Shown: in pieces, positions 1,441-63,046 of the stretch
How the letters are laid out: every line of letters starts with the position of its first letter
How positions within the stretch are numbered: the first letter of the stretch is position 1
Source: Gnetum montanum
Taxonomy: Eukaryota > Plantae > Gnetophyta
Direction of reading: 5' to 3'
Assembly: GCA_015680685.1 (NCBI GenBank)
Contig: MNCI01000737.1
Coordinates: forward strand, 678,440-742,439
DNA length: 64,000 nucleotides
Translations under genes and position numbers: made by a program
The notes under the pieces: generated by a model
The model's database searches: none
What the model was told of the DNA's origin: nothing
Seen by the model: the letters and a program-made list of their open reading frames with translations, nothing else

Positions 1441-2485
1441 AGGGAATGATTAGGGTGTGACATCAAGGGGACTTGTGGATTCTCTTTGGTGTCATCTGTG
1501 GGTGTTATCATGCAACTTGGTTGTACTAAGATCCTTGTAAATCTAAAGAAAAAAAAGGGAGTAAGAGTAATCAAAAGAGCACTCGACAATCAAACGCTGT
1601 TCTAGGGGGTCCCACTGGAAAGACATGCACCCATGCCTGAAGGTTGGCGATTTCTCTGGATTCAGTAAAGTGAAAAAACAAGAGAAGAAAAGAAAAAAAA
1701 AGAAAAAGGAAGTGCCATAAAACAAAAACATCACTCCTCCCTTGGACTAAACGCCAAGTGATTGTACGCCTTGTTGTTATGGTACTCTCATAGTTGTTCA
1801 TCATGGGATGAAACAATGCGATGTCACTGTTTAGATGGATGGACTTGGTCCTGATCTTGGAACAATGGGTTAATGACATGTTAATCATGCTTCTCACGTA
1901 GGATTCATTGTGCCCCGAGTCAGTTACCTCATGTCCCGATCTCTACGATCCCTTTCTCTCCTTCGTCTCATCTCACTGTTCGTGTAATTGTAGCTCGTGT
2001 CCCGTGTAACATAGAATTTTCATCTCATTTCGGTGATATTTACATGCGTGTGTTTTGTGGATTTAGTGCAGATTACAATTAACCCTTCTAGTGCCCACGG
2101 ACACTTTAAGTGTGATTACACAAGGGCATAATAGGTTGAAACCTGCTTTGGGGAGGACCCACTTGTGTAATTTTGTTGTAATCTTCATTAATTCTCTAGC
2201 TAGAACACACAATTTCTTACCCTTAGCTTAGTTTTTCATAATTTTCTTTCCCATTTATTAACCCTCAAATTTTAACGTTCCAATGTACCATTACATTCCC
2301 TTTTCTTTATAACCGCCAAAGTTTTAATTGTTAAATTCACACCAATTTCATTCAAAGTGCCTCTCGAATTCATGTAATTACCCTTGAATTCATTAATTCT
2401 TGTTAATGTCCTAGTTTTACACATTAATTTCAAGAAAAATCATTTAAAATTCGGTCTTTGTCAGTTATCTCACTTTAGCCAGGCT

Positions 2486-2574
2486 GAGATATCGCATACG
2501 CGATATCGCGTCCCACGAGATATCACGTATGCGATGTACCGTACGCGATATCGCGTCCCCCCTTCCTATAAATA
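2486..2574 (+). promoter_or_regulatory. Internal promoter: GCGATATCGC box array plus TATAAATA
   Basis: Perfect GCGATATCGC at 2500-2509 and 2545-2554, degenerate copies between, and TATAAATA at 2567-2574. The layout matches the LTR U3 at 62090-62171. Confidence 0.7.
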
Positions 2575-3040
2575 GGAACCCCCGCCGCAACACTTAGCAT
2601 CATTTGGCATTTACGCAGGGGGGAAGTTTTTGAATTTTTTCTATGCGACTTGCGCTTGAGTGACCCTTGCTTTTTCAACTCTATTTCGCGCACTGGTACT
2701 CCGATTTTAATTCCGTTTGAACCTGCTTGAACCTGGAGTGTTCAGTTTAGTCGTGGGGGAGAGACACTTGCCGAAAAAGTGCCTAACTTTTTTGAAATTT
2801 TTCATCGCCCAAAGGACATCAATTAGGGTAATTAATACTAACACTTAGCAAATTGTTCCAAAATGCTATAACCTTAAGTGTATCGGGAGATTAAAACGAA
2901 AATCCGCCTAAGTCGTAGGACCCATTATCATAATTTTTGGGCTCGATCACACAATAACATAAGCTCTTTAATTAAGGCAAGTAGTAAGGTATAACTTGAT
3001 TTCCAAAACAACCGTACTAACGTTGGCCGTGTGATTGCAG

Positions 3041-5626
3041 ATGGCCCCGAAACGCTCCCAGCAGAAGAGTCCGACCCAAGGTGGAGCAAAACAACCTAGG
3101 AGAGGTCGAAAGCAAGGCCCTGCCGGACAGCATAATGAACAGGAGGCGCATTCATTCAGCATCCAACAAGACGGACCTCCTACCAGACGATCCGGGCAGG
3201 CAGAAGGAGGAGTTGCTGCGCCTGAACTGGGACAACAACTCACGTTGCCCCCGGAATGTGTTCAGGCCATCCACACGAAGTACACAATTGCTTCAGTGAT
3301 TGTGGACTCAACTTCGAACCTTTTGCAAAGTTCGCTCCTGAGGCTGTTAGGGATCACCTCAAAGGGTCTCCCTTATGGCTTGTCCTCTCTAAACAAGGTG
3401 CCTAGTACTTAGGAGAAACGTACCTATTTTGGCACAATAAAGAGCAAGGCACCACGGTAAACATCGGTGGTGTGACGGTGGATTTTTCTGCACAGGCGAT
3501 TTCGGAAGTGTTAAACCTTCCGAACTCAAGCATCCATGTTGCTCGATTATCCACCTGATTCGACCCTGATGTGCGAAAGGATTGGCTAGAGAAGGCTTAT
3601 GGCAGAGATAAGGCTTTTGGTGAGCTGACTACGGAAGAGCGAGTCTATTTCAAAATCGGGACCTATCACCTCTTCCCCACAAAAGGTTTAAAAAGAATAT
3701 CAACGTATGCGGCAAGAGGATGTGCAGTGTTGATGGGAAAGGTTAACGCTAACCTTCCTCATCTATATTTGACAGAGATCCTAAGGCGATTTGAAGAACG
3801 GAAGACAGGGAAAATGGCACTCCCTTTTCCCTGCCTTATCAGAAAACTATGCCGTTAGGCAGGTATTCGGGGGTATACTAATGATGTCCTTCGAAAAGCC
3901 CAAAATGCTTCTTACGTTGAATTGTTAAAGGCGCCAACTCCAAGAAAGAGCACTGGCGAAGAGTTGGGACCTGATGAAGAAGACGAAGAAGAAATGACTG
4001 GACCACCTACAACTCAACTTGCAGGACCCAGTCAACCTCCAGCCACAGGTCCCAGCCAACAACAAGAAGCAGGAACCGGTACAGGCCAGGATCAACCGCC
4101 GCCGCAAGACTATAGACCGTCAATGAGCCATTTGAGGGCCATTGCTGAGACGGTCAGTTGGGGAAGTCGTGATGACACCAGTCTCTTCCGTGTCATCGAT
4201 GATGCCAGGCAGCCTACAATTTCAATAGATCGCATAAGGGGTGAGTTATCAGTGCAAACAGGAGGAGGGGAAAGCAGATGGTCACAACAAATTTCTAGAC
4301 GTGCGGCATCTTTTCAAGTGCAATTAGAGACTGGTGAAGGGGCCACTGTGGTGGTCATGCAACACGAGGATGCTGCGGGAGCAGCTGAAGTGGTCGCTGA
4401 CCACATCAAAGAATCTTGTAATGTACCTGTTGTGCCACCGGCTGATCTCTCAGGAGCACAGGATGCTCAAACTATCGCCAGAACCTCAATGACTCCTGCA
4501 GAACATGAGGATGTATTGGATAGATTGCTTCAAACAGGGCAAGTTTTAACGTCTCTGTTTGACATCCCCCAGGATGTAACATTTCGACAAAGGGGAAGCT
4601 AGTCATATCTGAAGTGAGGGCTGAGCATGCTGAAGCTGCAGTGCAGAAATTACAAGAGCAGCTCATCTCCTTGCAAGCAGCACAGCGGGATCCCTTGCGA
4701 TTGGTTCCCGCAGACCAGTTAGATAATTTTAAAACTGAGCAACTCACAAAATTAATCGCAGAAAATAAGAAGGTGGCAGAAGAAAAGGAGACGGCCACTT
4801 GGGATGCCTCCACAGCAAAAGTGAAAACTCATGCGCATCTTAAGGCACTCAAGGCCTTGCAAGAAGAGAACCAGCAGTTGGTTGCAGATAACCTTCGGTT
4901 GACTTCTGTGGAGAAGCAGAAGAATGTTCTCGATGAGCACTTCCATCGGCTGCGAGAATAATTTATTCGAGTCAACCAAGATGTAAGCCATTTAGCCAGA
5001 GAAAATCGAACCCTCTCAATGGAGGAGGTATGCGCTATTCGACAGAAATCAGCCATCGAGATTAGCGCATGGCAGAATCAGGCTAAACGACACAAGAAGC
5101 TGAAGGAGCACTTCCGTGATTAGGTGGGGATGTACAAACAGATCCTGGAGAAGGAGATCCATATGGCCAAAGCTCAAATCAACAGCATCAGTGCCCAGCA
5201 CACTGATTGGGGGGCCATTTTGGACACTTATGCCTACGCCCACCAGGCGGAAATTAAGAACCGAGACCTGCAGATCCAAGACTTAACTGAATACATGGAG
5301 TTGGCAAATCTTTGATATGCCAACCTAGTCATGTTAACAGCAGGACGCCTGAGGTCAGAGCTCGAGCAGCAGGTAGCTTCCACCCATATTAAATATGAAG
5401 CAGAATTTGCAGAACGAAAGAAGTTGGCTGAAAAACTTGAGGTTGTAAATTCTGAACTCGGGGTGGTAAAAGAAAGATACCAAGGACAGAAAGATGTGGC
5501 AACCGACTTGGCTCGTCGGCTAACAGAACTTCATGAATACAAGGACAGAGACAGGGCCTACAAAGAGGAACGATGGGTGTTCGCGGCATGGTACGTCAAG
5601 GCTAATCAGATGTTTCCGCAACTACC
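3041..5626 (+). pseudogene. Retrotransposon accessory ORF (Athila env-like / plant-transposon-protein-type domain plus long coiled coil), disrupted
   Basis: MAPKRSQQ... start; VTVDFSAQAISEVLNLP and LPFPCLIRKLCR*AG motifs; heptad-rich E/K/Q/L C-terminal half. It has several stops and frameshifts and runs into the gap. Confidence 0.7.
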
Positions 5627-6515
5627 NNNNNNNNNNNNNNNNNNNNNNNNNNNNNNNNNNNNNNNNNNNNNNNNNNNNNNNNNNNNNNNNNNNNNNNNNN
5701 NNNNNNNNNNNNNNNNNNNNNNNNNNNNNNNNNNNNNNNNNNNNNNNNNNNNNNNNNNNNNNNNNNNNNNNNNNNNNNNNNNNNNNNNNNNNNNNNNNNN
5801 NNNNNNNNNNNNNNNNNNNNNNNNNNNNNNNNNNNNNNNNNNNNNNNNNNNNNNNNNNNNNNNNNNNNNNNNNNNNNNNNNNNNNNNNNNNNNNNNNNNN
5901 NNNNNNNNNNNNNNNNNNNNNNNNNNNNNNNNNNNNNNNNNNNNNNNNNNNNNNNNNNNNNNNNNNNNNNNNNNNNNNNNNNNNNNNNNNNNNNNNNNNN
6001 NNNNNNNNNNNNNNNNNNNNNNNNNNNNNNNNNNNNNNNNNNNNNNNNNNNNNNNNNNNNNNNNNNNNNNNNNNNNNNNNNNNNNNNNNNNNNNNNNNNN
6101 NNNNNNNNNNNNNNNNNNNNNNNNNNNNNNNNNNNNNNNNNNNNNNNNNNNNNNNNNNNNNNNNNNNNNNNNNNNNNNNNNNNNNNNNNNNNNNNNNNNN
6201 NNNNNNNNNNNNNNNNNNNNNNNNNNNNNNNNNNNNNNNNNNNNNNNNNNNNNNNNNNNNNNNNNNNNNNNNNNNNNNNNNNNNNNNNNNNNNNNNNNNN
6301 NNNNNNNNNNNNNNNNNNNNNNNNNNNNNNNNNNNNNNNNNNNNNNNNNNNNNNNNNNNNNNNNNNNNNNNNNNNNNNNNNNNNNNNNNNNNNNNNNNNN
6401 NNNNNNNNNNNNNNNNNNNNNNNNNNNNNNNNNNNNNNNNNNNNNNNNNNNNNNNNNNNNNNNNNNNNNNNNNNNNNNNNNNNNNNNNNNNNNNNNNNNN
6501 NNNNNNNNNNNNNNC

Positions 6516-6734
6516 CATCAGGAGTAGCATTAGATTTAGGAACACATCATACACCTCATCTAGACTAAACCATACGTGACATATGCAAAACTAGTCTAGA
6601 TGGGAAGACAGCGAACTGCGACCTAAGGCTAACTATCTAGATGCCACAACTAGTCCATCTGCGGAGTTCGACAGGATCGTGCATGCGACGCTCATTTCGT
6701 ATGGTTAAGTGTAGGGGTACCTCGCCACTCATCA
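6516..6734 (+). repeat. 3' LTR (distal part visible), subfamily B
   Basis: Ends GTGTAGGGGTACCTCGCCACTCATCA; closely matches the LTR at 58353-59212. Confidence 0.85.
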
Positions 6735-7859: not shown

Positions 7860-10560
7860 TCTAGTTCAACTCATGATATTCTTGTTAAAGCATCAAGAGT
7901 TTGTTTTGTTCTTTTAATATCTTTAATAAGATTTTTCTTGGAAAATCCCCTTTCATAGTCAATTGTGCTAGCTGAAATGGTCATAATGCTTTGCGTTAAT
8001 TTTGTAAGATGTGGAAATTTTGGATGCTAAATTTTATTATTTCAAAAAATTTTCCATGTATCAGTCATTTCAAAATCTCCATAGGAAATATACAATGCAT
8101 GAACAAATGTAGATAACTCTTTTTTATAGCCACCATCCACCATTATAAAAAAACATTACTATTTTCAAGTTGCATATTTTGCACATATGTAAATAGTTTA
8201 TCTAACCATTTACTTATTTTATTCTCCCTTTCTTTTTTATAGCTTAGATAATAAGATGGGCTAAACAATTTAACTAAATTAAATAGAGAAAAACATGGAA
8301 ATCTATTGTTTAAGGAATAAAAAATAGATAAAACATAATGAATAACTAAATCCTTGCAACGCTCTAAACTATCTTTCACAAAGTTGCTCATGTTCTTTTG
8401 ATTAACTTCTGGTAACCTAACATCATTCATTGTAAGCTTATAATAAATTAATTGATGTTTGTTAATTATATTTTCATCATTATGAATAAAGATAAATCAA
8501 TGTTTGGAATCATTCAAGGACTTTAAAAGATATAATGTATCAATAGTAAAATTATCTTTTGAGATTATGTTATTAATTGTCATTTTCAATCTAAAATCAA
8601 GAGTAGTTATATCAAGATATTCTTCTTGAAGCATGCTATTCAATTTATTTAGTTCTAATAATGTATTGGCAAGCATATGAAGAAAAAATTGAAAATAGTA
8701 AATTCTAATCATTTTGTATAATATTTTTTTCTTCTTCCATAAATTTAAACGGCCAAGCATAAAGTTAACTCATCAAACCATTACTTCTTTCCTTGATAAT
8801 CATCTTACATATTGAATTTGTAATACATCTAATATATCTAATGGCAAAATTTTTTAGGAAGTATGATAGCTCATTTGTTCTTTTTGAAGATTGTTTAAAC
8901 CAATAGTATATTAAGTTTGCAACCTTTTCTACAAACAACAATTCTGAAATATTTTTTGAAGTATTTGTTGCTACTAAGGACTTTCTATGATATATGCAAT
9001 GAATAAAAATTAAATTTTAACATTTTCTTTTCATGTAACTGACAAAACCCATTTTACAACCTACCATTTGATGAGTCACGATATTGGACACCTGATATTG
9101 GCTCCCCGATATCGGATACGCGATATCAGAGGTGCCAAAGCGATATTGGGCATGCGATGTCGAAACCTATCTCATTGGCTATAAATAAGAGACAGGGGCA
9201 CTTGGTTTGGTATTTAGTTTTTAATCCCTTAGCCGAACTCTTGCAATTTTTCCCTTCCAGAGTTAGAATTATTTTTGAGTGCCCGCAGTAGGAGTCATAA
9301 AGTAAACGGATCTTTATTCGAGCATTGTGTACCTAAGCACACCTTGTGACTAGAAATAAAGACAAACTTTATGATAAGCCTTGCAACATTCAAAATAGCT
9401 TAATTATTGCATTTCATGTTATTTACTGTTATTTGATGCTTTCAATAGTTAATTAATGTTATTTCTATTGAATTGTTAATTGTCAACAAATTAGCACACT
9501 CAGCATGACCACTTCGGGCATACATGGAACACTTGGTAACCCAGTAATGACTAGCGTTTGGTAATCCCAGTAGTGTTACACTGGTTCAGGATGTGTTCAG
9601 AGAGTGGGAACGGATGCTGGTGTTAGGGTTTGATTTATATTAAAGTTACAAAAAATTCATTAGTTAATTAAATCTTTTCATTACACACACTTAGGAGATT
9701 AAGAGAGAAAAGATAAAAAGCATAAAAATCATATACCTCAAGTTTACTTAACCATACAATTGTGCCTTACAGGTAAGCTTGGGAAGATAATGATCGCATA
9801 ACCCATCCTTGTTCTGTGTAAGCGCATAAGCACTTAATCCTTGGAGTTCGATTAGATCACACGTCAATGCTTGTATTCGTATGGTTGGACATAGGGGTAC
9901 CTCACCACTCATCACCATCGAAGGTGCACCATCTATAGTAACAACTATTATATTTTCAAAAGATAAACCTTTTGTATTTATCTATTCTTCAACCATCTTA
10001 AATATTGTTTCTCGCTTTCCATTTGTTACTTATACAACCTTTGAAACTTTAGAAACTGGAGCTCTATACCCATTCATTTTTAAATATGTAGCATACATAA
10101 TTAATTGTTTCTTTAATGAGTGATCTATACTCTCATTTGCTACTTTTTTATTAAGATATGAAAAATAGCCATTACTTTTAGGCATATAAGGTGTCTCTAG
10201 TTACATAAGAAGTTCACATAGCTTCTTATATTTGATTCGTAATAGATCTTTTTTACATATCAAGTAAGCTACTTTTACACTTTTTCTGAGCTCTTCACAT
10301 GTTTTGATACTTTTTTGAACTTCATCATTCTTTAACTCAATCCATCTTCTTTGAGCTTCTTGATGTGCTTTTGAGTTTTTATGAGAAATATAAGAATCAT
10401 GTTGGATGTTTGTAAAACCATTTCCTTTTTCCCATCAACCTTCTTTCTCAAAGCTTTACAATGTACACATTTCATTGCAATCCCTAAAACACAACTATTT
10501 ATAGGTTTTAACCAATTATACTTCGACAACAAATCATCTTAAAAATTTTGATATACTTAT
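7860..10560 (-). mobile_element. Degenerate hAT-superfamily transposase (ZNF862-like), split by a solo LTR
   Basis: N-terminal KYNWL..KCVHCK zinc-finger-like segment; VTIDGAPSM|VGCKMG reconstituted across the LTR insertion; C-terminal ISASTIDYERGFS dimerisation motif near 7940-7980. Confidence 0.8.
9069..9914 (+). mobile_element. Solo LTR, subfamily A
   Basis: TGATGAG...CTCATCA; TSD CCATT/CCATC; CCGATATCGG-type boxes; TATAAATA at ~9180. Confidence 0.9.
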
Positions 10561-12623: not shown

Positions 12624-13390
12624 TGATGAGTGGCGAGGTACCCCTACACTCAACCATACGAATACGAGCGTTTCACGCGCAATCTGGTCGAACTCCAAGG
12701 ACTAAGTGCTTATGCGCCCTAATGGAACACTTAAGGGTTAATCAATTGTTGTCTTCCCAGACTTACTTGTATTGTCACGGTTGTATGGTTAAGTAAACCT
12801 GAGGTGTATGATTTTTATGTCTTTTATCTTTTTAACGCCTATGCTAAGAGGGGAAAGGTGAAGAGACTAAATAACTAACTTTCATTAACTAAGTTCTAAT
12901 AGTCCTAGCACCGGTATCCGTTCCCACTTACCGTACACAGCCTGAACCAGTGTAACACTACTGGGATTACCAAACGCTACTCGTTACAGGGTTACCAAGT
13001 GTTACACACGTGCTCAAAGTAGTCGTACTGAATGCACTTAACTAGGAGAGTTGAGGGTTGAGAGAGATTAATTATCTAAGAAAGCATTTAAACATTTAAT
13101 AGTAATTAAATCCTATTTAGCTTAATCCATATGCTGCAAGGTTTATCAGAAATTTTGTCTTTATTGTTGTACACAAATGTGTGCTTAGGTACAATTTGCT
13201 CGAATAAAGATCCGTTCACTTTAAGACTCCTACTGCGAGCACATGGAAATTATTCTAACTCTGGAATGGTAAAACTGCCATAGTTTGGCTAAGGGTCTAG
13301 ATCTAGATGGGAAAACAAGGGAAAGCCTCCTCTTATTTATACGCATGACAGCAAGCTACGATATCGCATACGCGATATTGTAGCTCATCA
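12624..13390 (-). mobile_element. Solo LTR, subfamily A
   Basis: Family termini; perfect TSD ACAAT. Confidence 0.92.
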
Positions 13391-14235: not shown

Positions 14236-15104
14236 TCATGAATCATGTTTTTTAGCAGCTAAGATAACTTAGCCTTGATATCTCATGCTACGTTATTAGA
14301 TATTTGATATCTCAGGATGCATGCCTACCTATAAATACAACACTTGGGTGCATGATCTAAATAACTTTCATTTCATCCTTAGGTAGATTCTTGCAGTTTC
14401 ATTTCATAGTTTTAGTGATAGAGTAAATGCCTACAATGTGGTGTTGAGCAACTGTACAAAATCTTTATTTGAGTGAAGTGTACTTGGGCACAATTCATGA
14501 CCAGAAATAAAGATTGAGATTGTTTTTCATCATTACAGCATCCACTTAGTTTTACTGTTTTACTTAGCATATTTTTTACTATTTTTTTAGTTTAATCATT
14601 TACATTTCCAAATACTTTACTTTCTTATTCATTAGTAAAGTAGAATGAGTACAATTGGTTTTGAGCGTTTAAGTGTAATCATTTGGTAATCTCAATAGTA
14701 TTATTGCTTGGTTCACCAAATAGTAATGGTTAATGCTTGGTAACCCAATAATGGTTACATGAGCCCAAGACATGTATGGTAAGCCAAGACCAGATGCTCA
14801 TCACTCTAGGCTAGAGTAGATTTACGTTATCATCATTACTTAGATTTAGAATTAAATTTCATTCTCAATTATGTTTATCACTAGTAGTAAAATGGGCCTA
14901 ACAACATCAATTACCACATGCCTAACTTTGGACTAAACCATACATAGCAAAGCTACCACTAGTCTAAGTGAGAAGACAACGTCTTGAAATCAATGCTTGA
15001 CAATCTAGATGCCACAACTAGTCTTGTCCATAAAAGTCGATTAGATTGTGCATGAACGCTTATGATTCATATGGTTGGGCGTAGGAGGTACCCTCTACTC
15101 ATCA
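14236..15104 (+). mobile_element. Solo LTR, subfamily B, old
   Basis: TCATGAA (degenerate)...CTCATCA; TSD TTAGA on both sides; internal homology to the other LTRs. Confidence 0.8.
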
Positions 15105-15640: not shown

Positions 15641-16299
15641 AGAGATTAGGTTTTTACTCATTCACAAACCTTTCTAGGACCTTGCCTTGGTCTGATGAGC
15701 ATTGAACCTTTGGGTGATGATCCTATTATTACATATAGTAAGGAATTTTGGTGCAATATGCTGTATTATTTTATTTATACTTGTAAATAATAATTTTTAT
15801 GGGTTAAACATTTATTTTATAAGTTAATTAGATCAAGGTTAAATTCAAATCCTTTGATATACATAGCATTTCTATTAGTTATTTATAAAGTATTTTATAT
15901 ATTTAGTATGGATGTTACACATATCACACGAAAACTAATGATCAAATTAAACAAGTAAATTCAATTTTGGAAGGTATTTTACAAATTTATGTGGGATCCA
16001 AGCCCAAAACATCAAAAAATTATATCTATTTAACGAAATTCATGTATAATATTAATTAGAAAAGGTCAATTCAACTAACTCTATTTGAAGTAGTATATGT
16101 ACGAAATTGTTGTACACCCTTAACTTTAGCCAATCTAACCTTACAAGTCAAAGGGAAAAAAGAATAAAATAAAACCATTAAAAATATTATTACAAAAGTT
16201 AAATAGTATCTACAAGCTACTCAAGATAATTATAACAAATATGTTGACTAACATTGCTTGAGAAAAGAGTTTCAAGTAGGAGATAAAGTTCAACCACTT

Positions 16300-23665: not shown

Positions 23666-23677
23666 TTATAACTCAAC

Positions 23678-27290: not shown

Positions 27291-27304
27291 TAATTGATTG
27301 AAAA

Positions 27305-29540: not shown

Positions 29541-29622
29541 AACAATGGCTTAAATAGGAGACTTGCTTCTGAAGCGAGGCTTGATGATGGTGATTATTAG
29601 GATCTCCGATATGACTCCATGG

Positions 29623-30408: not shown

Positions 30409-30604
30409 TTCAAATTTATTTCGTCTCGCTGGAACGGATAAGGATAAAAACCAAAAACGCAACACCGACTATTGGGATGGTCCAGTTTGAGAAAGTTGGA
30501 TGTCTCAGTATTCTTATGTTTAGTCAAGATCATAAATTCTTTTTTAATACTTATATTTTGTAGAATTCCCATGCATTGCATGCACGCACCACGCAACAGC
30601 GCCT

Positions 30605-35059: not shown

Positions 35060-38000
35060 AACACAACCCACATCACATAGAGTCTTGAATTGGGTAGAAT
35101 ATGCAAAATCATGGCACTCATCAAAGATTGGTTAGAAGCATAGTGAGAATGCCTTAGCCAACATGCATGCATAAAAGACCTAGGACATACACATGCATAT
35201 GCATGACACATCATAACACAACATGATCCAAGACAACATGACACAATAACAAGAATGAGCTAGAGAGGCAAAGCCTCCCCAACAAGCCTACATATGCTTG
35301 TGATGTAGTTCATTTGGAATCAAGGCCATGTGCTTTTTTTGTGATGATTATCATAGCATGGAACTTGTAAGGATCTACTAATAAGACATATTTTCCTATA
35401 CCCTCTTGCTTGAAAGATGTGATATCCTCAAAGCTTAAGTCTTTGTTTGTATGCTTTCTAAATGTGGAGAGCACATTGAATATAGAGGGACTTCAAACAA
35501 GAAATAGCCTTTTCAATAGTTGCATATAAGAAGGTCTAGCAATTAGGGTTATTTAACCATAAAGCATGAATGTGGAACTTAACTTAATATCCAATAAAGG
35601 CTTAAAGATGTTCACATACCCCAAGTTTAGAAATAAAAGATTTGTCCTTTTTCATGCAAAATATACCAAACTTTCTACCTAAAGTGAATTTGATGAGTCA
35701 TGATTTGCCTGGCCCTGATATCGAATATCAAGCCCTTAGATGCGTTATTGGATATCCGATATCGGGGGTATGGGCTAGCCTGTAAATATGGTGCTTGGGC
35801 ACATGGTTTGGGCATTAGTTTTTGCATAGAGTAACGAAGTTATTGTAGTTTAGTCATTCCATAGTTAGAATATTTCTGAGTGCTTGCAGTAGGAGTGAGT
35901 GTTACGAACCTTTATTCGAGCATTGATGTACTTGAGCACAGCAATGTGATAGGAATAAATATGAGCCCTTTTGATAATCCTTGCATCATTGAGAATATAT
36001 TAATGTTTCATTTAATGCCATTTGATATTCTTGCACTTTACTTTAACGCACTTTAATTAAGCACGACTACTTCGAGCATACATATAGTACTTGGTAACCT
36101 AGAAATGCTTAACGTTTGGTAACCAGTGGGCCTATATGTGTTCAAGATGTGTCTAGGAAAGTGGAATGGGTACTTGTGTTAGGCTAGTTAGATAGTAGAA
36201 TAATTAGATATTAAATTCCTTTGCCTTCCATTCTTGTTTTAGTCGGTTAAATTTATAAAATATAAAATAATAAAAATCATATGCCTCACTTTGAACTAAA
36301 TCATACGTGACAAAGCTACCACTAGTCCAAGTGGGAAGACAACGAACTGTGATTAAGACATAACAATCTAGATGCCACAACTAGTCCCATCCACACATTC
36401 GACCAGATCGTGTGTGAACTCTTGTGATTCGTATGGTTGGGGGTAGGGGTACCTTGCCACTCATCAAAATTCTACTCACTTGACATGCAAACTAGTTCTA
36501 TACCTCTAGTAGTGATACAAGAAAGTAGAGTCAACCCTCTACATCCAAGTGGAAACTACTTCATACCTTGGTGGAAGCACTCCCCATGCTTAGTGGTAGC
36601 CTAATCCTAACATGAGCAAAGCATCTTTGGAACTTTAGCCTCATTGTGGCATCACCCAATTTCTTAATTAAGAGGAAACACACTAGTTCTCTAACTCTTA
36701 GAAGTAGCTCATCTTGGATCCACTTAGCACCATTTGGGTTATCTTACTTTCACCAATTTTTTTTATAGACAACAATATGTCTCCCAAATGCTATGACTTT
36801 CAACATGAACTAGCAACACTAGTGTGGCCACCCCCATAGATCCACAAAGGTAGATCAATATGATTCTCTGCATAGAAGATTACAATGAGTGTCTCCCTAA
36901 GAGTATGCTTGTCCTCCCAGGTATCCTCCTTTGAGAACGTGCCTTGCCAATGAACCAAAAATTCCACCTTTTGATCAAGAGCACATCCAATGGTATGCAT
37001 GTTGACAATGTAATGAATTTTTTATTCTTTCACAACCTCAATGTTTAGAGGCCCATGGATCCTTATCTTTGCTGGATTGACATTTAAAAGATTGAACTTT
37101 TTCAACATGAAAACATGAAATATCGGATGACACTTGCTAGATATGCTAGCAACTACAACTTGTATGCAGGAATATCCATATAAGTAAGGATCTTGAAAGG
37201 TTCATCATAGCACCTTAAGAACTTCTAACTTGCATCCTTCTTTTACCTCAACTACCTTGCATAATCCATCTTCAAGAGAGTTAACTTCTCGACATCAAAC
37301 TACACAAGTTTATGTTTGCTATCACTATACTTTTTCATACGATGAATAGACTTTTTCAAATACAATCCAACCATCTAAATATGATCTATCCATGAATTCA
37401 CAAACTTATCAACTAAAGGATTTTGACTTTGATATAAGAAAACAACAATTGGAGTTGGTTGGCACCTCAAGGCTAACTCTATTGGAGAAAATCTCATGGC
37501 AAAGGACTCATGAATGTTGTAATTGAATTGTGCCACAACTAATAGAGTTACTCAATTTTTTTGATTAAACTAAATGAAATGTTTCAAGTACTCCTCCAAA
37601 ACCCTATTCACTCATTCTATTTATCCATCTATTTGCAGATGATATTCCAAAGATATTCACAGCTTCGTACCCATCATGTTAAATAACTTCCTCTAAAAAT
37701 CTCTCATGAAATAAGAGTCTTGATCAAACAAAATGTTGGTTGGAAATCCAAAGTAGTGAACCACATGATTAAATAATAAAGATGTCACATTCTCAGTCAT
37801 GCAAGGTGTTGGGCATAGAGTGAAAATGGCATACTTAGAGAACTTGTCCATAACGACAAGAATGTTGAAAAATCCCTACATAATGAGAAGCCTAATGATA
37901 AAATCCATGGAAACACTTATTCATGAAAGCTCTAGAATCTCCAAGGGGTGGAGTAAATCATTTGGTCTCTCACTGGAACTCTTATCTTATTGACAAACCA

Positions 38001-49349: not shown

Positions 49350-52300
49350 GAATCTATGAAAAGGTAAAAATTTTTAATAATTGATGTAGTTGATGAAATT
49401 TTCATACGATGATGTGGTTGCTCGTTACATGCTTCAACAGACATGGTAGCATGGGTTCCTTGTTTTCTTGATGCATGCCATGAGATTAATATATTTTTCC
49501 TCTAGCAATCTAGTATTACCAACTTCTCATTTCTCATCAACAAGGTTTTTATTTAGAGGGAGGTTCCATGGGTAACATAATATTAGAAACATTTCTTTGG
49601 CCAATATGTACCATGTCACAAATTTGGAAGCCTACAAAGAAAGTAGAAATGCATAGAGATGCTACTTTGTTAGACCATTTTCATATTAGCATTTTTCTTT
49701 TTGGAATTTATTCTTCCTCCTTTCAAAAGCACGAGCTTTTATGTATGAATATCTAATATGTTCACAATGCCTAGTACAAAAATATTTTGAAGTTTTAATG
49801 AAATGGAGTAAAAGAACCTACTAGTAATATTGATTAGATTGATTGGTGATAGCAAAATACTTGTAGAGTCAAAAGTTATGATAGACGGTTTAAAAAGCAA
49901 TTTTCCAAGCATAAACGTCAACTTGAAGAAGATCTTATAAAATCTGTTAAGCAAATGTAAATTCTTTGAGACCAAAATCTCTTTGATTTTGAAACTCAAA
50001 AAGCCTTGGCCAAAGCTTGTTATGTTAAATAATGTTAGGATACTTTTGAAGCTAAGTACCCTCACTAAAAATCACATAGGTTAGCTAATAATTGAAGATG
50101 AATATTGCAAGGAATTTTTTAAATTTCTAAAAGAAAAAGGTCAAGTACCTAAACTGGAATTACTTTATATAAATGATTTCATCATTAAAGATCCTAAGGC
50201 TATTAATAACTTTTTAGCAAATCATTTTTTGTCTATTTTTTCTTCTAAATGTTTCACCAAGGAATCTTTCCAAGCCTCTAGGAAGCATATTCCTCATCTT
50301 ACAACAAAAGCATGTTGAAGTATTCTTGAAGCTGAAATTGCAATAGAAGAAATCAAAGCAACGACCTTTAGTTTAGCAGATGATAAAGCTCTAGGTTTTG
50401 ATGGTTTTCCAATTGAAGTTTTTAAAAAGCATTACGACATCCTTGGAGATGATCTCTTTCATGTTTTCCAAGAAATGATTTAAAAAGTTTCTTTTGGTAA
50501 AAATTTTAATAAAGGTATGATTCGTCTTCTTCTTGAAAATGGAGATCTTTAACATATTGGTAATTAGAGGCCTATTAATCTTCTTAACAATTCTTATAAA
50601 AATTTAGCTAAATGCATGGCTTGTTGAATTCAAAAGGTTATTGAAGATATCATTAGACTTGAGTAAACAAGATTTGTTAAAGTTAGACATATCTTAAATA
50701 ATGTTGTTGCAGCTTGAGAGGGAATGCAATAGGCCCATGATACTAAACAAAACATTGTTTTTATTAAGTTAGATTATACTAAAGGTTATAATAAGATTAA
50801 AAGAAATTTCATTATTTCTTGTCTCTATGAACTAGAATTTGGTGATTATTTTATTTGTCTTGTCCATACCTTGCTCATTGAAGTTAATGCTTAAGTTGCT
50901 ACCAATTTTGGATTAATTTTCTTTTTTTCTTTTTAATGGTCAATTTGTCAAGGTTGTCCTCTAGCTCCCTCTCTTTTTATTATTGTTGCAGACTTTCTTT
51001 CATATAATCTACATTATGATCTACAAAGGAATATCATTAAGGGAATTTTAATTGATGATCAAGGTACATAATTGCTTAACATGCACTTTGTAGATAATTT
51101 TTTCATGATCAATAATTCTTTGCAATATATCAATACTCTTTTAGCTAGAGTGGAGGACTATTGTATGTTATTTGGCTCTCAAATCAATTGGTGAAACTTT
51201 TTGTTTATTGTAATGGTAATATTAATGAGTGGGTTACTCTCAAGCTATGGAAAATCTTGAAGATAGATTTTATCTTTAAAATTTTAGGAATACTGTTTTC
51301 TTTTGAGAATAATATTACTATTTTGTGGAATTATGTAGTTGATAAAATTGAAAACATGCCTGGTAAATAAAAAGAAAAAAAGTTTATCCTTTGATGAGCC
51401 GCGATATTGCATCCGCCACGTGATATCGCGTCCTGCCTTATCTTCTATAAATAAGAGACGGCTTCCTTTGTTCAAGGGGGTAAGACTTAGACCCTTAGCC
51501 AAACTCTTGCAGTTTTACCATTCCAGAGTTAAAGTAATTTCTGTGTGCCTGTAGTAGGAGTCATAGAGCAAACGGATCTTTATTTGAGCAATTTGTACTT
51601 GAGCACACATTTGTGTACGACAATAAAGACGAACTTTATGATAAACCTTGCAACATACAAACTAAGCTAATTAGTAATTAATTATTGTTGAATGTTTAAT
51701 ACTTTCCTAGTTAATTAATCTCTCTCTCAACCTTTGACTCTCTTAGTTAAGTACACTTAGTACGACTGCTTTGAGCATGTGTGTAGCGCTTGGTAACCCA
51801 GTAACGATTAGCGTTTAGTAATCCCAGCAGCGTTGCATTGGTTAAGGATGTGTACGGCAAGTGGGGATGGATACTGGTGTTAGGAACAATTAGAACTTAG
51901 TTAGTGAATAGTTAATGTAAGTTAGTCACTTAGTTATCTTTCCCTTCCCTTATTAGCATAAGACATTAAAAAGATAAAAGCTATAAAAAATCATATACCT
52001 CAAGCTTACTTAACCATACAACCATGACAATACAAGTGAGTTTGGGAAGACAACGGTTGATTAACCCTGAGTGTTCCATTAAGGTGCGTAAGCATTTAGT
52101 CCTTGGAGTTCGACCGGATCGTGCGTGAAACGCTCGTATTTGGATGGTTGAGTGTAGGGGTACCTCACCACTCATCATCCTTGTTTGTAAAGTTTTAGTT
52201 ATCAAGAAAATGCTTCAATCAACTCATGTTTATTACTTTAATTATTAGGCTCCTTCTAAAACATCATATGATAGAATTGATCATATTATCCATTGGTTTC

Positions 52301-54293: not shown

Positions 54294-55960
54294 TGATGGG
54301 TCATCATTGTGTCTACCCCAATATCAGATACTCGATATTGAGGCTTTGATATCGGGTACGCAATATTGGGTCCCAAGAAACAATGTTGAGTATCTGATAT
54401 CATCTCCTTTGTGCTAGCCTATAAATACAACACTTGGGTGCACGATTGGGACATAGTTTTAGTTCTCAGTTTTTGATAGTCTTTCTTAGATTTTTGAATT
54501 CTAGTTTTGCTATTCCTAGTGCATGCCCACAATGTGATGTTTGTAATCATATGGCACCTTTGTTCGAGTGTGATGTACTTGGACATAGTACATGACTGAA
54601 AATAAAGATTGAGATTACTTCCATCATTGCCACATTCACTTAGATTTATTATTGTTTTTATTATTTAATTATTTACTATTTTTTAGTTAATGTTTAAATT
54701 TATTGCTATTTACTATTCCTATCATTAAGTGGAATGAGTATGACTTAATAATGAGTGCTTAAGTGTAAGTACTTGGTAATCCAGCAGTGTATTGTTTGGC
54801 ACACCCAGTGATGTAGGCTTGGCAATCCCAGCGGTAGTTATATGAGCTCCAAGGCGTGTATGAACGATTGGAGATTAATGAGTGGCAAGGTACCCCTACA
54901 CTCAACCATATGAATACGAGCATTTCACGCATGATCCGGTCGAACTCCAAGGACTAAGTGCTTACGCACCTTAATGGAACACTCAGGGTTAATCAATCAT
55001 TGTCTTCCCAAACTTACTTGTATTGTAACGGTTGTATGGTTAAGTAAGCTTGAGGTATATGATTTTTATAGCTTTTTGTCTTTTTATGTCTTCTCCTAAT
55101 AAAGGAAAAAGAGAGAGAACTAAGTGACTGACTTACATTAACTAGTTCTAAATGTTCCTAACACTAGTATCCATTCCCACTTGTCATACACATCCTGAAC
55201 TAGTGCAACGCTACTGGGATTACCAAATGCTAATCGTCACTGGGTTACCAAGCACTACATGCATGCTCGAAGCGGTCGTACTGAGTGTATTTAACTAAGG
55301 GGGTTGAACGTTGAGAAAGATATTAATTAGCTAAGAAAGAATTAAAAAATCATTAATTACTAATTAGCTTAATTTATATGCTGCAAGGTTTATCATAAAG
55401 TTCGCCTTTATTGCCGTACAAAAAATTGTGCTCAGGTACAAGTTGCTCGAATAAAGATCCGTTCACTCTATGACTCCTACTGCGGGCACACAGAAATAAT
55501 TCTAACTCTGGAATAACAAAACTTCAAGAATTTGGCTAAGGGTCTAAGTCTAACTACATGGAACCAAGGGCGCCGCCTCTTATTTATAGAAGATGAGGCA
55601 GGACGCGATATCGCATATGCGATATTGCGTGGCGGATGCGATATCGCAGCTCATCAGAGATGGATACTCATCATTCATAGGCTAGTTTAGATCTTATTTT
55701 CCATTGTTCATTAGCTTAGTTAATTTATCTCTTTATTGTTATTAGGAGCAGCATAGAATTAGACAAATATCATATGTGTCACTTTGGACTAAACCATACA
55801 TGACAAAGCTAGCACTAGTCCAAGCGGGAAGACAGTGAACTGTGATTAAAGCATAATGATCTAAATGCCATAACTAGTTTCATCCATAGAATTCGACTGG
55901 ATCATGCTTGAACACTTGTGATTTGTATGGGTGGGTGTAGGGGTACCTCGCTGCTCATCA
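54294..55960 (+). mobile_element. LTR, subfamily B, hosting a nested LTR
   Basis: TGATGGG...CTCATCA; flanks TACCT/TTGGC do not match, so there is no TSD. Confidence 0.8.
54876..55656 (-). mobile_element. Solo LTR, subfamily A, nested antisense in a subfamily B LTR
   Basis: TAATGAG...CTCATCA; perfect TSD GAGAT. Confidence 0.92.
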
Positions 55961-56079
55961 TTGGCATCATTGCCGATGATGGTGCTAGTTATCTAGATTA
56001 GTTATATCATGAAAACACCCAATCATATAATCCATAAGTATTGTGAGGGATTGTATCATAATTTATGGATGAAACTATC

Positions 56080-56831
56080 AAAGTATCTAGATAGTTAAAC
56101 ATGAGATCGTGAGCTGCTATCTTCCCACTTGGACTAGTAGTAATTCCTAGTGTATATGGTTTAGTCCAAGGTGAGGCATATGATCATAATGTTGTTTGAC
56201 ATTTAATAAAACAAGGTAAAAACATAGAAATTAACTAATTAATCTAACAAATAATAAAGTAAATAATCCTAAGCTAGCGTAAGAGTGATGAATATTAAAT
56301 TTCCTATTTATTATACATGTCTTGAGCTCACATGCCTACTACTAGGATTACCAAGCTTTATGCGACAAGGCAAACCAAGTAATAGCATTACTAGGATTAT
56401 CAAGAGAATACACATTTACACTCAAAACTAGTCATGCTTGTTCTACCATGATTAATGTGCATGAAAATGTAAATTATTATGCTAATTGCAAGGAAAATAA
56501 TTGCAAGAAAGTAAATGTATTCTAAGTTAGAATGCTGGAATGAAATGAAATCAATCTTAATCTTTATTTTCATTCATGGAACATGTTCAGGTACATCCCA
56601 CTTAAATAATGAATCCAAAAAATTGCCTCAAAATGACTCAAAACTATGTTATGGACACTTGCTAACTACTACAGAAACTAAGAAAATAAACTAATAGAGT
56701 TTGGCTACGCTATGACCAAATGGTATTATAAGTGCAATTGGTGAACCCTATTTATAGGCATTTATTATGATTGTAAATCATATCCTAGCTACAATCTACA
56801 ATATGACAAATGTATCACTCAATTTTCATCA
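56080..56831 (-). mobile_element. Old partial LTR, subfamily B
   Basis: TCTTCCCACTTGGACTAG...ATGGTTTAGTCCAAGGTGAGG stem block, GGATTACCAAG repeats, TATTTATAG, terminal TTCATCA; the LTR 3' end is missing. Confidence 0.7.
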
Positions 56832-59452
56832 ATTCTAAGACAAGGACTATGTTTGTGTTTCCTTGCAAAAATGTCATCTTAGCCTTAAGCTTCCCAACAT
56901 ATGGTGCTTCATCACATATTATGATCACACATTATTTAACACTTGTAGTTATCACAGGGTATAGTTAAATGTAGTTGAGGCATATTATTAACTGTATTAT
57001 TTTCCTCAAAATAGTAGTAAAGAACATCATAATAATGAATATTAAATTAATTAACAAATATAATTAAAATGATCTAACTCATAGTATGAAATGAATAAAT
57101 TCTAAACTTGTTAAGTAATCACTCTATCAACCTATCAATAAGCGTCTAGATCTTACATGTTAACTATTACATGAACAAAGTTAAGTGTTAAGGCATCGAA
57201 GCTTCGATGTACTCAATTTATGATAATTATCATTAACTATCATTAATAATTAATGTATAATGCTTAAAAGTAAATTGTATGAAAAGTAAAAGCTAAAGTA
57301 AAACTATTATAATATGTTTGGAATCAATCTTGATATTCTTGCCAAATATGGTTATATTCAGGCATAACCAATAAAATAAGATTGTCAATTAAAACTAAAA
57401 CATACTATGCATGTGTTTATTGGACTAGAAATGCTACTTTCTTGATTTTTATGTGGAGCATTTATCAGTAGGGTATCACATGGTATTGATAAGGTTAATG
57501 TTGCATGGACATTAGTACATTGACACAATCCCTAATAGCATGATTCATTATACCTTAAAAAATTATTCAAAACTCATCCTCATATTTATAGAAAATGAAC
57601 TATATACAATTACAAAAATTTCAACTCATTTGATTAACAAAATTACAAGCATTGCATACAACAAAATTTCAAAGTGATTAGTCTTAAAAACAAAATTACT
57701 CTATCTTCCATAGCTTGCATATTATTTCTTAGCATGATGTTTTAAATCATAGTATATATATCATCAGCTACAGTTAATTTCTTAAGGATTAGAGGATAAA
57801 TAAATAGCTTTACAGTTAATGACTAGTTGAGATGTAGTAGGCAGTTATTAGTCTTAGAATAATAAAAATAGCTAGTTATAAGAAAAAAGAAAAAAAAAAT
57901 TTAAAAAGATATAATGACTAGTTTTAGGAAAAGTCAAATTCATCATCATCATCATCATCATCCTAGTGTTATCCTAACAAAAGCTATACTATTATTAAAA
58001 AAACAAGCAACAAGAGAAAAATGACAAAAATAACAACAATAATTTAAACAAATAAAGGTAAATCAAAATAACTAGTTAAAAAGTATTAAAAAAATCATAA
58101 TGTTATTTCAATTATAATTAAACTCATAACCTCTAACATATAAGATAATGAACTTATAAATACACATAAAAAAATAAGAAACATATAAATTATTAAAAAG
58201 AGTATGTGAGATGGAGCATATTAAATTAAGTAAGATTTTTAAAAATATTTCTAGATTTCTTAATTTGTATTATAAAAGGCTACCAAACCAAATGGGTAAA
58301 TGTCATACCCTGAAATTAACTATAGGAAAACATAAGAAATTACTTGCAAGACTGATTAGTGGCGAGGTACCCCTACACTCAACCATACGAATGCGAGTGT
58401 TTCATGCATGATCCGGTCGAACTCCGCAGAAGAGCTAGTTGTGTTATCTAGACAGTTATCCTTATATCACCGTTCGCTATCTTCCCATCTGGACTAGTGT
58501 TAACTTTGTCACGTATGGTTTAGTTCAGAGTGAGGTGTATGATGTGTTCCTACACTAATGCTACTCCTGGGTATGATGGTAAAGAATATGAACTAACTAG
58601 GAAAGGGAGAGGGTGAGAGAGAATGTAACTAGCCTAAGTGCGATGAGCATCCATTCCTTAATCATCTGTACACATCTTGGACCTCATGCATGATTGCCAC
58701 TGGGATTACCAAGCACATGGCCAAAGTATGCTACTAGGTTACCAAGTAGTCACACTTAAATGCTCGTGATTAAGTCGTACTCATTCCGCATTACTAGGAG
58801 ATAAGGGTAAAGAGATATTAACTATGAAAGCAGTGAATAACAATGACAATAACAATAACAATTAAATAATTTAAATTAAGTGAATGCTGCAATGATGAAG
58901 TAATCTTGATCTTTATTGTTGGTCATGTGCATGTCCAAGTACATCACACTCAAATAAGGATGCCGTACAATTACAATCACCACACTACGGGCATGCACTG
59001 AGAGAGAAGGGTTGAGAGAAGAACTACTTAAAACTAAACACTTAAAGAGAACTCTAACAACTAAAAAAATGCCTCCCAGATCTGTCTACCTCTTATTTAT
59101 AGATGAGGAGATAGGCTGCGATATCGTGTACACAATATCACGTCTAGGCTGCGATATTGCGTACGCGATATCATATATGCGATATCGCGGCCAATAAAAT
59201 GATAACTCATCATACCCCCATGACTGAATGAAAACTCGTCCTCGAGTTATAGTGAGAACAAGCTCCAATAATTGCACAGTGGATAGGTATGAGATTATTG
59301 ACTAGTGAATGGGTTCACGTCGCAGTGTGGACTTAGAACAAAATTGAGACACAACACAAAGAATGCGAAAGAGAATCCTATGGCTACAAAATTGATGGAA
59401 CTCATGTAGTCCCAAGTGGCAAGGGCTCCTCCATAGGTGCCTTTCCCTTGTC

Positions 59453-62400
59453 TTATGCTCCAGGTCTTGGGACTTGATGGCGTTGAAGTATGGCCTGGAG
59501 TTTCTCCTCTTCGGTTTGGGGATACTGTGTTGTCCATGCTAATGTTCCAATGTTTGATGGAGTTGGCACCTCCCATAGGCAAGGTAGTTGCGAAAACATT
59601 TGATTTGGCTTGACATACCAAGTTGCAAACACCTGTCGTTCCTCCTCGTAGGCTCTGGCTTTGTCTTTGTATTCTTGAAAGTCTGCAAGAAGTCGACCTA
59701 AGTTTGTTGCGACACCTTTTTGTCCTTGGTAGCTTGCTTTAACCACCTCAAGTTTAGAATTTGCAATCTCCAGTTTTTGCAATATCTTTTTACATTCTGC
59801 AAATTCTATTTCATATTTGATGTAGGTGGTGGCTACCTATTGCTCGAGCTCTGTTCTCAGGTGCCCTACTGTTAACATGGCAAGGTTGGCATATCGCAGG
59901 TTTGCCAACTCCATGTATTCTGTAATGTCCTGGATTTGCAGGTCTTGGTTCTTAACTTCAGCCTGGTGGGCAAATGCATATATGTCCAATGTGGCCCGCT
60001 ACTCAGTGTGTTGAGCACTGATAGCTTTGATGTGGGCTTTGGCCATATGGATCTCCTTCTCAATGATCTGCTTATACATCCCCACCTGGTTCTGGAAGTG
60101 CTCCTTTAGCTTTTCATGCTATTTAGCCTCATTCTGCCACGTGCTTATTTCAATAGCTGTCTTCTGGCGGATGGCGCATACCTTCTCCATTGAGAGGGTT
60201 TGATTTTTCCTAGCTAAATGGTCCATGTCCTGGTTGACTCGGATGAGTTGTTCTCGTAACTACTGAAAATGTTCTTCAAGAACATTCCTTTGCTTTTCCA
60301 TAGAGGTCAACCGAAGGTTGTCGGCAATAAGCTTCTTGTTTTCCTCTTGTAAGGCCTTGAGTGCCTTGATATGCACATAAGTTTACACTTATGCTGTAGA
60401 GGCATCCCAATCAGTCTTCTCTTTTTCTTCTACCACCTTCTTATTCTCTGTTAATAATTTAGTCAGTTGCTCAGTTTTGAAAATGTCCAGTTGGTCTATG
60501 GGAACAAATTGCAAAGGATCTCGTTGTGCTGCTTGTAGGGTCATGAGCCTTTCTTGCAATCTTTGCACCTCTGCTTCAGCATGCTCAGCCCTCATGTCTG
60601 TTAAGACCAACTTCCCTTTGGTGGAAATGAGGTCTGATTGAATTACCATAACATCCTGAGGGATGTCAAACAGAGACATCATTACTTTTCCTATTTGTAG
60701 TAATCAATCAAGTACATCCTCATGTTCCGTAGGAGTCATTGAGGTTCCGGTAAGAGTTTGAGCATCCCATGCTTCTGTAAGATTTGCTGGTGGCACAATA
60801 GGTACGTTGAATGATTCCTTAATGTGGTCTCCGACCACTTCTACGGCTCCTACTGCATCCTGGTGCTACATGACCATCATTGTGGCCCCTTCACCAATTT
60901 CTAATTCCACTTGAAAAGATGCAGCATTCCTTGAGATCTGTTGTGACCAAGTGCTCTCCCCTCCTCATGTATGAATGGACACTTCACCCCTTGTGCAATC
61001 CAAAGAAACTATGGGTTGTATGGCATCGTCGATGACGTGGAAGAGATTTGCATCATCACAACTTCCCCAACTAACTGTCTCAATGATGGCCTTGAGATGG
61101 CTCATCAACAGTCTGTAATCTTGCGATGACGGTGGTTGATCCTACTGGCTCATGTTAGGCCTTGCTTCTTGTTGTTGGCTGGGTCCTATGCTTGGAAGTT
61201 GGCTAGGCCCTGCAAGTTGAGTTGCAGTTGGCCCTGCCGTTTGTTCCTTTTCTTGTTCTAGCCCCAGCATCTCACTAGTGATTTTCCTTGCAATTGGTGG
61301 CTTTAGTAGTTCAGCATATGAAGCATTTTGGGCTTTTTGGAGGACATCATTGGTGTATCCTCTGATACCAGCACGTCTACACAGCTTCCTGATAAGACAA
61401 GGAAAGGGCAATGCAAGCTTCCCTATCTTTCGTTCTTCAAACCACCTCAGGATCTCTGTAAAATATAGATGATGCAGGTTAGCGTTAATCTTTCCCATCA
61501 ACACTACACATCCTATAGCTGCATATGTTGAAATTCTTTTTAAGCCATTTATGGGGAAGAGGTGATAAGTTCCCATTTTAAAGTAAATCCTTTCTTCTGT
61601 TGTCAACTCCCCAAACATCTTATCTTCCTTGCCATACACCCTTTCCAACCAAACTCTTCGTGCATTAGGGTCTGAATGGGTAGACAACTGAGCAACCTTT
61701 GGCCCTGTATTTGGAAGGTTTAATACTTTCGAAATGGCCTGAACAGAGAAATCGATTGTCACACCACAAATGTTAGCCGTGGTGTCTTGTTCCTTGTTGT
61801 GCCAAAATTGGTATGTTTCCCCTAAGTACTAGGCACCGCTTTCATAGAGGATAGGCCATAATGGGGATCCTTTGAGGTGGTCCCTAATGGACTCTGGAGA
61901 AAACTCTGCAAAAGATTCAAAATTTAATTCCACAATCACCACAATGAATATGGACTTTTCATGGATAGCCTGAACACAATCCTGGTGCAACGTGAGATGT
62001 TGTCCCTGTTTAGGCATTGCAGCAGCTCCTCCTTCCACTTGCCTTGATTGTACAGTAGTAGGGTGATGAGATGCGACTTACACTAGGCTGCGATATCGTG
62101 TACGCGATATCGCATCTTCTCTTGCGATATCGCGTACGCGATATCGCGTCCCGCCGCCATTTCTATAAATAAGAGGCGGCACTCCCTTCATTTCCCAATC
62201 CTGGCTAGTGTAGTGAATCTCTGGCCGATTGATCACTCCAGAGTTAGAATTTTTCCCCATGTGCCCGCAGTAGGAGTCCTAGAGTGAACGGCTCTTTATT
62301 CGAGCAGCTTGTAACCTGAACCCAAGTTGTGTATGGCAATAAAGACGAACTTGTTTGGATAAACCTTGCAGCACATGGTTTCATTTATTGCTTTCATTTA

Positions 62401-63046
62401 CTGCTTTCCTAGTGCGTTCAAGTACGACTTGATTACGAGCGTCTACGGACGTGTACAGTTAGTCAAGGAATCGGCTGCTTATCACACGTAGGCTAAATAG
62501 GTGCCTCAGTACGACCACTTCGAGCACTTGCGTTACGCGTGGCGATCCCAGTAACGATTAGCGTTTGGTAAGCTGCAGTTGCATAGTTCAGGGTGTGGCC
62601 GGTAAGTGGGAACGGATGCTGATGCTAGTTAATTTAGACTTAGATCTTAGTTAGAGTTAGTTTAGTTTTCTCAACCCTTTCTCCTGGTAGCATAGAAGAA
62701 AAGCCGAAAAATACCAAAAAAATCACATACCTCAGACTTGCTTAACCATACACCGTGACACATACAAGCAAGCCTAGGAAGACAACGAACGATTAACCCC
62801 AAGTGTTTCTTGTGGCGTTAAGGCATTTAGTCTGCGGAGTTCGACCGGATCGCGCGTGCACGCTCGTATTCGTATGGTGGAGTGTAGGGGTACCTCACCA
62901 CTCATCATAGGGTCTTCTTGGTGGATGCTAAATGATTGTTCCTTCTACTCTGCATGCTTTTCGGCAAGGACTTGTCCTGCACCTCTCCTAGGTCGTTTGC
63001 TCCCACCTTAAGTAGGACCTTCCTGTTGTCCGCATTTCGGGGCCAT
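59453..63046 (-). pseudogene. Accessory ORF (~910 codons after removing the nested LTR), disrupted
   Basis: ATG at 63046 after a GTGATTGCAG acceptor; TIDFSVQAISKVLNLP, LPFPCLIRKLCRRAGI, coiled coil; ends ...VPRPGA*. Confidence 0.78.
62064..62907 (+). mobile_element. Young solo LTR (subfamily A-like) inserted antisense in the accessory ORF
   Basis: Family termini; perfect TSD TAGGG; CpGs largely intact. Confidence 0.95.

Follow-up and report, generated by a model that had tools for sequence, protein, structure and literature searches.

A covarying U5 hairpin and candidate tRNA-Asp docking boxes in an Athila-type LTR family

Athila elements occupy large parts of plant genomes and centromeres, and to our knowledge their LTRs are regarded as unalignable beyond the terminal few bases. 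Among retroviruses, HIV-1 has a primer activation signal and an A-rich loop that contacts the tRNA anticodon, and RSV has a U5-IR stem. The family described here resembles retroviral U5 in having a hairpin beside the PBS whose loop appears complementary to the primer's anticodon loop, but it differs in the tRNA and the sequence involved, in a 7-bp, G/C-containing anticodon complement in place of an A-rich loop, and in a predicted long-range helix. Primer pairing outside the PBS is described for HIV-1, FIV and RSV and, in Ty3, for the D arm of the primer and the element RNA (excerpts of PMC5371799). Like Ty3, the present family belongs to the gypsy elements and has a candidate D-arm partner outside the PBS; the Ty3 partner, however, lies in U3 about 4.8 kb away, whereas the candidate here lies 5-23 nt before the LTR end. 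In the Ty1 leader, BOX0 and BOX1 anneal the primer tRNA and a 5' pseudoknot is needed for reverse transcription (excerpts of PMC7969010). Extra tRNA-annealing boxes and a leader pseudoknot, here predicted from sequence, would be shared with Ty1, but the two are unrelated in sequence: Ty1 is a copia element primed by tRNA-iMet, while the boxes here lie in U5 upstream of the PBS and the primer is tRNA-Asp.

A tRNA-Asp PBS is that of the Athila/Calypso group (excerpts of PMC2844528 and of the ATHILAfinder preprint). The Athila LTR-PBS junction, as outlined in excerpts of the ATHILAfinder preprint and of FIDEL, combines an ATCA end, a short spacer, a tRNA-Asp/Asn PBS and an extra 3' ORF, and the present family is alike in this; those excerpts treat the terminal pentamer, spacer and PBS only, U5 folds and tRNA boxes being absent from them, and the Athila LTRs they describe are longer than those found here. 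Our full-text search, which covered few subscription papers and did not extend to the original Athila4/Calypso work or to supplements of preprints, likewise met with no account of U5 folds or additional tRNA boxes for LTRs of the Athila lineage, the accessible texts including excerpts of PMC3601003, PMC6317226, PMC10886601, PMC2633040, PMC12218528 and 10.1101/085043. Cassandra and Helenus carry tRNA-related sequence within the LTR, as sense copies that serve as Pol III promoters in miniature elements (excerpts of PMC10886601). Unlike these, the match described here is antisense and the LTR has a TATA box and a poly(A) site; ARAGORN detected no tRNA, and sense runs numbered 0-1 per copy.

The LTR family and its U5 region

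The window, the 64,000-nucleotide stretch of DNA analysed here, is AT-rich plant DNA with a GC content of about 0.3. It contains 11 copies of a 180-nt motif, each at the 3' end of an LTR, where the first-pass annotation had placed it (Table 1). LTRs of the family measure 770-860 bp, start with TGATGAG and finish with CTCATCA. Four of the seven complete LTRs are flanked by exact 5-bp TSDs and two by TSDs with one mismatch, the remaining one being the 3' LTR behind a purine tract. By the sequence of its PBS, its LTR termini and its extra 3' ORF, the element is of the Athila type (Ty3/gypsy, OTA): a tRNA-Asp PBS follows the 5' LTR, with DNA as well as RNA runs showing loose ends behind 62908, the TG...ATCA ends come with a 5-bp TSD and a purine tract ahead of the 3' LTR, and the 3' part of the internal region holds the extra ORF. 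The internal region is multi-kb, unlike that of miniature elements of the Cassandra/Helenus type. The element closed by the U5 at 6515..6734 retains an internal part with a broken extra ORF, and a homologous element, which terminates in the LTR at 58353-59212(-), is the paralogue in which PF20167 was detected. That match reaches 45 bits at a cut-off of 45 in a frame interrupted by stops; we found no longer protein relatives of this piece, and no pol domain among the 23 frames scanned in the window.

Table 1. Coordinates of the motif, its parts and related features in the window.
Feature	Position	Strand	Remark
U5 of 3' LTR, subfamily-B element	6515..6734	+	remainder of LTR inside N gap 5627-6514
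P1, 5' strand	6555..6567	+	
Loop box AACCATAC, predicted pseudoknot strand	6568..6575	+	97% identical between subfamilies
CGTGACA in P1 loop	6575..6581	+	7-nt complement of tRNA-Asp anticodon loop nt 33-39
P1, 3' strand	6592..6604	+	
AAGAC + ACARCGA, weak candidate complement of tRNA 5' end (nt 2-8)	6605..6614	+	AAGAC conserved
Hairpin around AGTTCGA	6657..6677	+	88% paired; homologue of GG..CGAY box in other Athila-type LTRs
GTATGGTT, predicted pseudoknot partner of AACCATAC	6699..6706	+	
Terminal U5 hairpin	6707..6730	+	overlaps anti-D-arm box
Anti-D-arm box (putative)	6711..6729	+	antisense to tRNA-Asp nt 14-31; inside terminal hairpin region
Solo LTR, subfamily A	9069..9914	+	TSD with one mismatch
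Solo LTR, subfamily A	12624..13390	-	5-bp TSD
Motif copy, decayed subfamily-B LTR	14915..15104	+	
Solo LTR, B-type motif	35691..36466	+	TSD with one mismatch
Solo LTR, subfamily A	51392..52177	+	5-bp TSD
Solo LTR, subfamily A, within B LTR	54876..55656	-	5-bp TSD
Motif copy ending a subfamily-B 5' LTR	55771..55960	+	
Decayed tRNA-Asp-type PBS right after that 5' LTR	55962..55974	+	sole match in window
Eleventh motif copy, strongly decayed	55977..56182	-	53.8 bits
3' LTR of B element	58353..59212	-	purine tract precedes; sets LTR orientation
Broken extra 3' ORF piece, PF20167 Transposase_32	61142..61828	-	E 1.5e-11; counterpart ~3200-5626(+)
Solo LTR, A-like	62064..62907	+	5-bp TSD; TATA 62164-62171; AATAAA 62338-62343

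Two subfamily-A solo LTRs are nested in B elements, one in a B LTR (54876-55656) and one in an internal region (62064-62907), so A inserted later than B here. An X17 contig skips 849 nt of 62059-62909, that is, represents a paralogue or allele without the latter solo LTR. A U3-like block with GCGATATCGC repeats lies internally at 2472-2575 (+) and 63494-63617 (-), upstream of the PF20167 ORF, with TATAAATA present in the + copy; the block probably provides the extra ORF with another promoter. The window also holds another repeat family in 2-3 copies (16289-16816, 24965-27287 and 50603-53272, broken by the solo LTR at 51392-52177), and pieces of host genes, namely PfkB kinase exons and an HD-Zip homeobox exon, at 31221-32359 and 44906-45364. 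Mapping across sequencing runs, with the low-share runs X19 and X20 excluded, found the LTR family at very high copy number in four organisms (19,844-30,791 matching contigs per run), and exact-pattern scans for further members found none in metagenome contigs and none in viral contigs.

Transcripts allowed us to refine the position of the motif. RNA reads placed poly(A) addition behind 62352-62363, just past the AATAAA signal (214, 184 and 363 reads with poly(A) loose ends behind 62352/62363) and, in the LTR at 62064-62907, some 370 nt upstream of where the motif lies, and 150 reads in X21 and 207 in X24, which may include DNA carry-over, crossed the LTR end into the PBS. Since poly(A) is added upstream of the motif and a tRNA-Asp PBS comes after the LTR end, the motif corresponds to U5; it is thus found only in the 5' leader, adjoining the PBS. 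Over the R region (62123-62370), RNA reads of runs X21 and X22 were strongly stranded and carried poly(A) tails, and the promoter and poly(A) site of the family LTR appear to be active in organism A.

The P1 hairpin and the predicted loop helix

The first-pass annotation read the motif as a selected, covarying, pseudoknot-like RNA fold, a view that is supported for its long stem, P1, and plausible for the loop helix. P1 covaries and is real. At the coordinates originally proposed, all 13 positions pair, one of them as U-G, and, as had been claimed, the stem letters differ between copies while pairing is kept: six of 12 P1 pairs are changed on both sides, mostly on a single split between subfamilies A and B, so that independent events are few. 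When one bulge was fitted per copy in ten copies, 124 of 130 cells were paired (107 Watson-Crick and 17 G-U, against 3 A-C and 3 other), and 91.6% of cells were paired on the unfitted MAFFT alignment. None of 500 shuffles reached the score of the whole structure, in a comparison that ignores the relatedness of the copies. Common family variants within P1 (62769, 62773 and 62776, among 40 of 46 variants listed) keep or restore pairs. The stem quoted in the first-pass annotation for the 62064 copy contains an A-C mismatch, but in family reads a letter that makes the pair is common at this place (62773 C>T, 62776 A>G). The antisense strand of P1 is more stable than the sense strand in 6/10 copies and eight of the 17 G-U cells represent a single inherited pair; the case for RNA as the strand concerned is consequently weak.

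The remaining stems fared unevenly. The AGTTCGA hairpin (88% paired) and the terminal hairpin, with 86-93% pairing, are fairly supported, whereas pairing in the proposed GCGT-GAA-ACGC hairpin reaches a weak 66.7%. For the second stem the figure is 80%, but the CTAG/CTAG pair that had been suggested for subfamily B lies in other columns than those aligned with the A stem. The region as a whole folded no better than shuffled sequence (z of -0.84, +0.35 and -1.28).

For the loop helix, the complementarity noted between 6568-6576 and 6698-6706 was borne out, with 93.8% of cells paired, but the claim of covariation was not: none of its eight pairs is changed on both sides, so that of the two helices P1 alone covaries. 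Letters of the loop helix vary little in the ten copies, which gives the covariation test low power. Between subfamilies, identity is 0.97 for AACCATAC and 0.89 for GTATGGTT, compared with 0.33-0.62 in the P1 strands and linkers. In three intact copies the two boxes form 8-9 perfect pairs (P of 0.002, 0.004 and 0.045), and in two mutated copies 7 bp (P about 0.2). Measured against Ty1, then, a helix longer and more conserved than expected by chance was found, and a compensatory change within it was absent from the ten copies. The potential to form a AACCATAC/GTATGGTT helix is thus conserved and improbable by chance, and the pseudoknot itself is a plausible candidate. An upstream ATCATAY box, with which RNAalifold paired GTATGGTT, was rejected as its main partner; this pairing has weaker energy in the eight copies parsed correctly and is mismatched in the 62907 copy.

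Complementarity to tRNA-Asp

Because no tRNA-Asp gene was found in the sequence collections, we used published small-RNA pieces, all from papers of which excerpts were available: the first 18 nt (labelled tRNA-Asp; PMC6521008), 32 nt (PMC5831935) and a 40-nt piece with G at position 20 (PMC10068972), PMC6852985 and PMC3519564 serving as a source for tRNA fragments only. These pieces stem from pea and okra small-RNA papers and may differ from the host tRNA-Asp, and the complementarity tests cover tRNA-Asp without nt 41-53.

With this non-host tRNA, nt 9-32 had their best 24-nt site at the invariant terminal box GTAGGGGTACCTYRCCACT in 10/10 copies. The complementarity had a median z of -2.35 and p<=0.05 in 8/10 copies, for a G20 form, piece and search-window size chosen post hoc and in copies that amount to a single family; when the A20 form was tested against the whole final 150 nt, none of the window copies reached significance (z from -1.5 to +1.2). 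D-arm complementarity outside the PBS is therefore above chance in a manner that depends on the G20 form and on a region chosen after inspection. Common family variants of GTAGGGGTACCTYRCCACT are wobble-compatible. The predicted anti-D duplex amounts to -17 to -24 kcal/mol, compared with -3 to -11 for the hairpin that it overlaps, the cost of opening the modified tRNA being uncounted. On these sequence comparisons, we regard the putative D-arm box as well supported. The contact with the anticodon loop is suggestive: CGTGACA is perfect in 5/10 copies, drawn from both subfamilies (p 0.003-0.067 within the loop), and p ranges from 0.08 to 0.88 in the other five. The total of perfect antisense runs exceeded shuffles at P<=0.05 in only 1/10 copies, and a reversed-tRNA control gave as many perfect runs as the true tRNA.

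In addition, we scanned metagenome and genome contigs for LTR ends followed by a PBS, which yielded at least 144 junctions. Among the matches listed, 115 junctions were kept (upstream GC <0.5, AT-rich spacer, >=200 nt) and grouped into 49 families, which presumably come from other plants. Athila LTR-PBS junctions were also seen inside contigs of several bacterial GTDB genomes (for example L125, L131, L132 and L134), where they are most likely plant contamination. A model built from the window copies had no match outside the window at E<0.5 among the 84 loci searched; P1 and the loop helix thus appear to be particular to this family.

The D-arm complementarity, by comparison, recurs. In the 49 families, the terminal 150 nt of the LTR pair with the 5' piece of the tRNA better than shuffled sequence does, with a median z of -1.32 and z<-2 in 14/49, compared with 3/38 upstream and 0/45 downstream controls. 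A YY..GG..CGAY box, like GGAGTTCGAC of the window, occurs in 31/49 families listed (2.5 in shuffles, 0/38 upstream), and the 30 nt that follow its CGAY part rank in the top decile of D-arm pairing sites for 22/29 testable families and beat shuffled tRNA at p<=0.05 in 15/29. The last 45 nt fold at z<-2 in 13/49 families, compared with 2/49 controls, and ACGAC, which overlaps the CGAY box in part, occurs in 17/49 (4.7 in shuffles, 200 nt). Many of these families (L003-L146) combine a terminal hairpin in the last 45 nt with an ACGAC-like box that complements the 5' end of the tRNA. A possible R-TC/GA-Y stem within the shared box is no more than suggestive (Fisher p 0.035 on 16/31 families); in the remaining 15, which begin with a pyrimidine, it is unpaired. 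The anticodon complement was not enriched in the 49 other families listed.

New here are the LTR-terminal box that is putatively antisense to the tRNA-Asp D arm, the anticodon complement in the P1 loop, and the D-arm complementarity in other Athila-type families. The tRNA complementarity, which the first-pass annotation had missed, would explain the boxes that vary least better and would link the motif to a lineage-wide feature of Athila.

A proposed role in primer docking, and alternatives

We consider it reasonably probable that the U5 leader forms a folded platform on which the primer tRNA docks beyond the PBS, and that it regulates the initiation of reverse transcription, each functional step being inferred by analogy with Ty1, Ty3 and retroviruses. 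The 3' end of tRNA-Asp would anneal to the PBS, and the terminal U5 hairpin would open, its box pairing with the D arm and the anticodon-stem strand (nt 14-31). The predicted AACCATAC/GTATGGTT helix would tie P1 to the 3' end of U5, with CGTGACA in the loop reaching the anticodon loop. Reverse transcriptase would then have to unwind the tRNA contacts, by which the right primer may be selected and initiation paced. A far-reaching extension of this proposal, which we think unlikely, is that the pseudoknotted leader wraps the whole primer tRNA, with the P1 loop at the anticodon loop, the terminal box at the D arm and a third box at the freed 5' strand, and that the loop helix, gated by the tRNA, switches the leader from translation to reverse transcription or back; a eukaryotic mobile element would then carry a T-box-like device, the D-arm half of it Athila-wide.

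The first-pass annotation had itself offered packaging or dimerisation, translation and a ribozyme as possible functions. That Gag reads the fold, chiefly as a signal for packaging or dimerisation, with secondary or chance tRNA matches, we likewise judge unlikely. The restriction of the motif to the 5' leader would suit such a signal, as would the GGTACC palindrome in the terminal hairpin of 9/10 copies and the absence of the P1 and loop-helix layout from the other 84 loci, Gag-recognition signals often being family-specific; the palindrome, however, sits within the anti-D box, which accounts for it, and D-arm complementarity recurs in unrelated families without P1.

A second reading, improbable in our estimation, holds that only P1 and the small hairpins are real, that AACCATAC and GTATGGTT are conserved separately (as DNA or RNA protein sites or integrase-proximal sequence), and that P1 owes the renewal of its symmetry to template switching at a quasi-palindrome and not to RNA-level selection. 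An 8-bp helix that does not covary, double changes in P1 that fall mostly on one A/B split and possibly reflect one block event, the unremarkable folding of the whole region and an equally stable antisense P1 are all compatible with it. Correction of a palindrome would nevertheless erase the U-G and the several G-U pairs that P1 keeps (17 G-U compared with 3 A-C), and this reading has also to contend with two boxes that are perfectly complementary and far better conserved than their neighbours.

Control of leader translation or splicing, for instance of access to the gag start site, would agree with a motif in the transcribed 5' leader, but we hold it to be very improbable, as the motif adjoins the PBS and not a start codon, no joint falls inside it among 15 of 21 joints listed, and the tRNA complementarity would be left unexplained. 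An unknown self-cleaving ribozyme, for which the compact multi-stem layout and invariant single-stranded boxes might speak, is extremely unlikely, since the Rfam covariance models gave no match at or near threshold (the best, mir-1788, reached 24 of 57 bits on the P1 hairpin) and, among the ends listed for three RNA runs of raw reads, there were no sharp ones and no pile-up of molecule starts or ends, though fragmentation of the libraries may mask these; in addition, reads span U5 into the PBS, and cleavage here would split R-U5 from the primer site.

Taken together, the docking of primer tRNA-Asp by the U5 leader is the reading that we favour. A conserved U5 box with D-arm complementarity would provide a lineage-wide marker for solo LTRs, and it offers a short and cheap in-vitro test of how reverse transcription starts in plant gypsy elements. 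We further predict that 5' tRNA-Asp fragments, which are abundant in plant small-RNA sets and often filed as miR6300, could bind Athila leaders.
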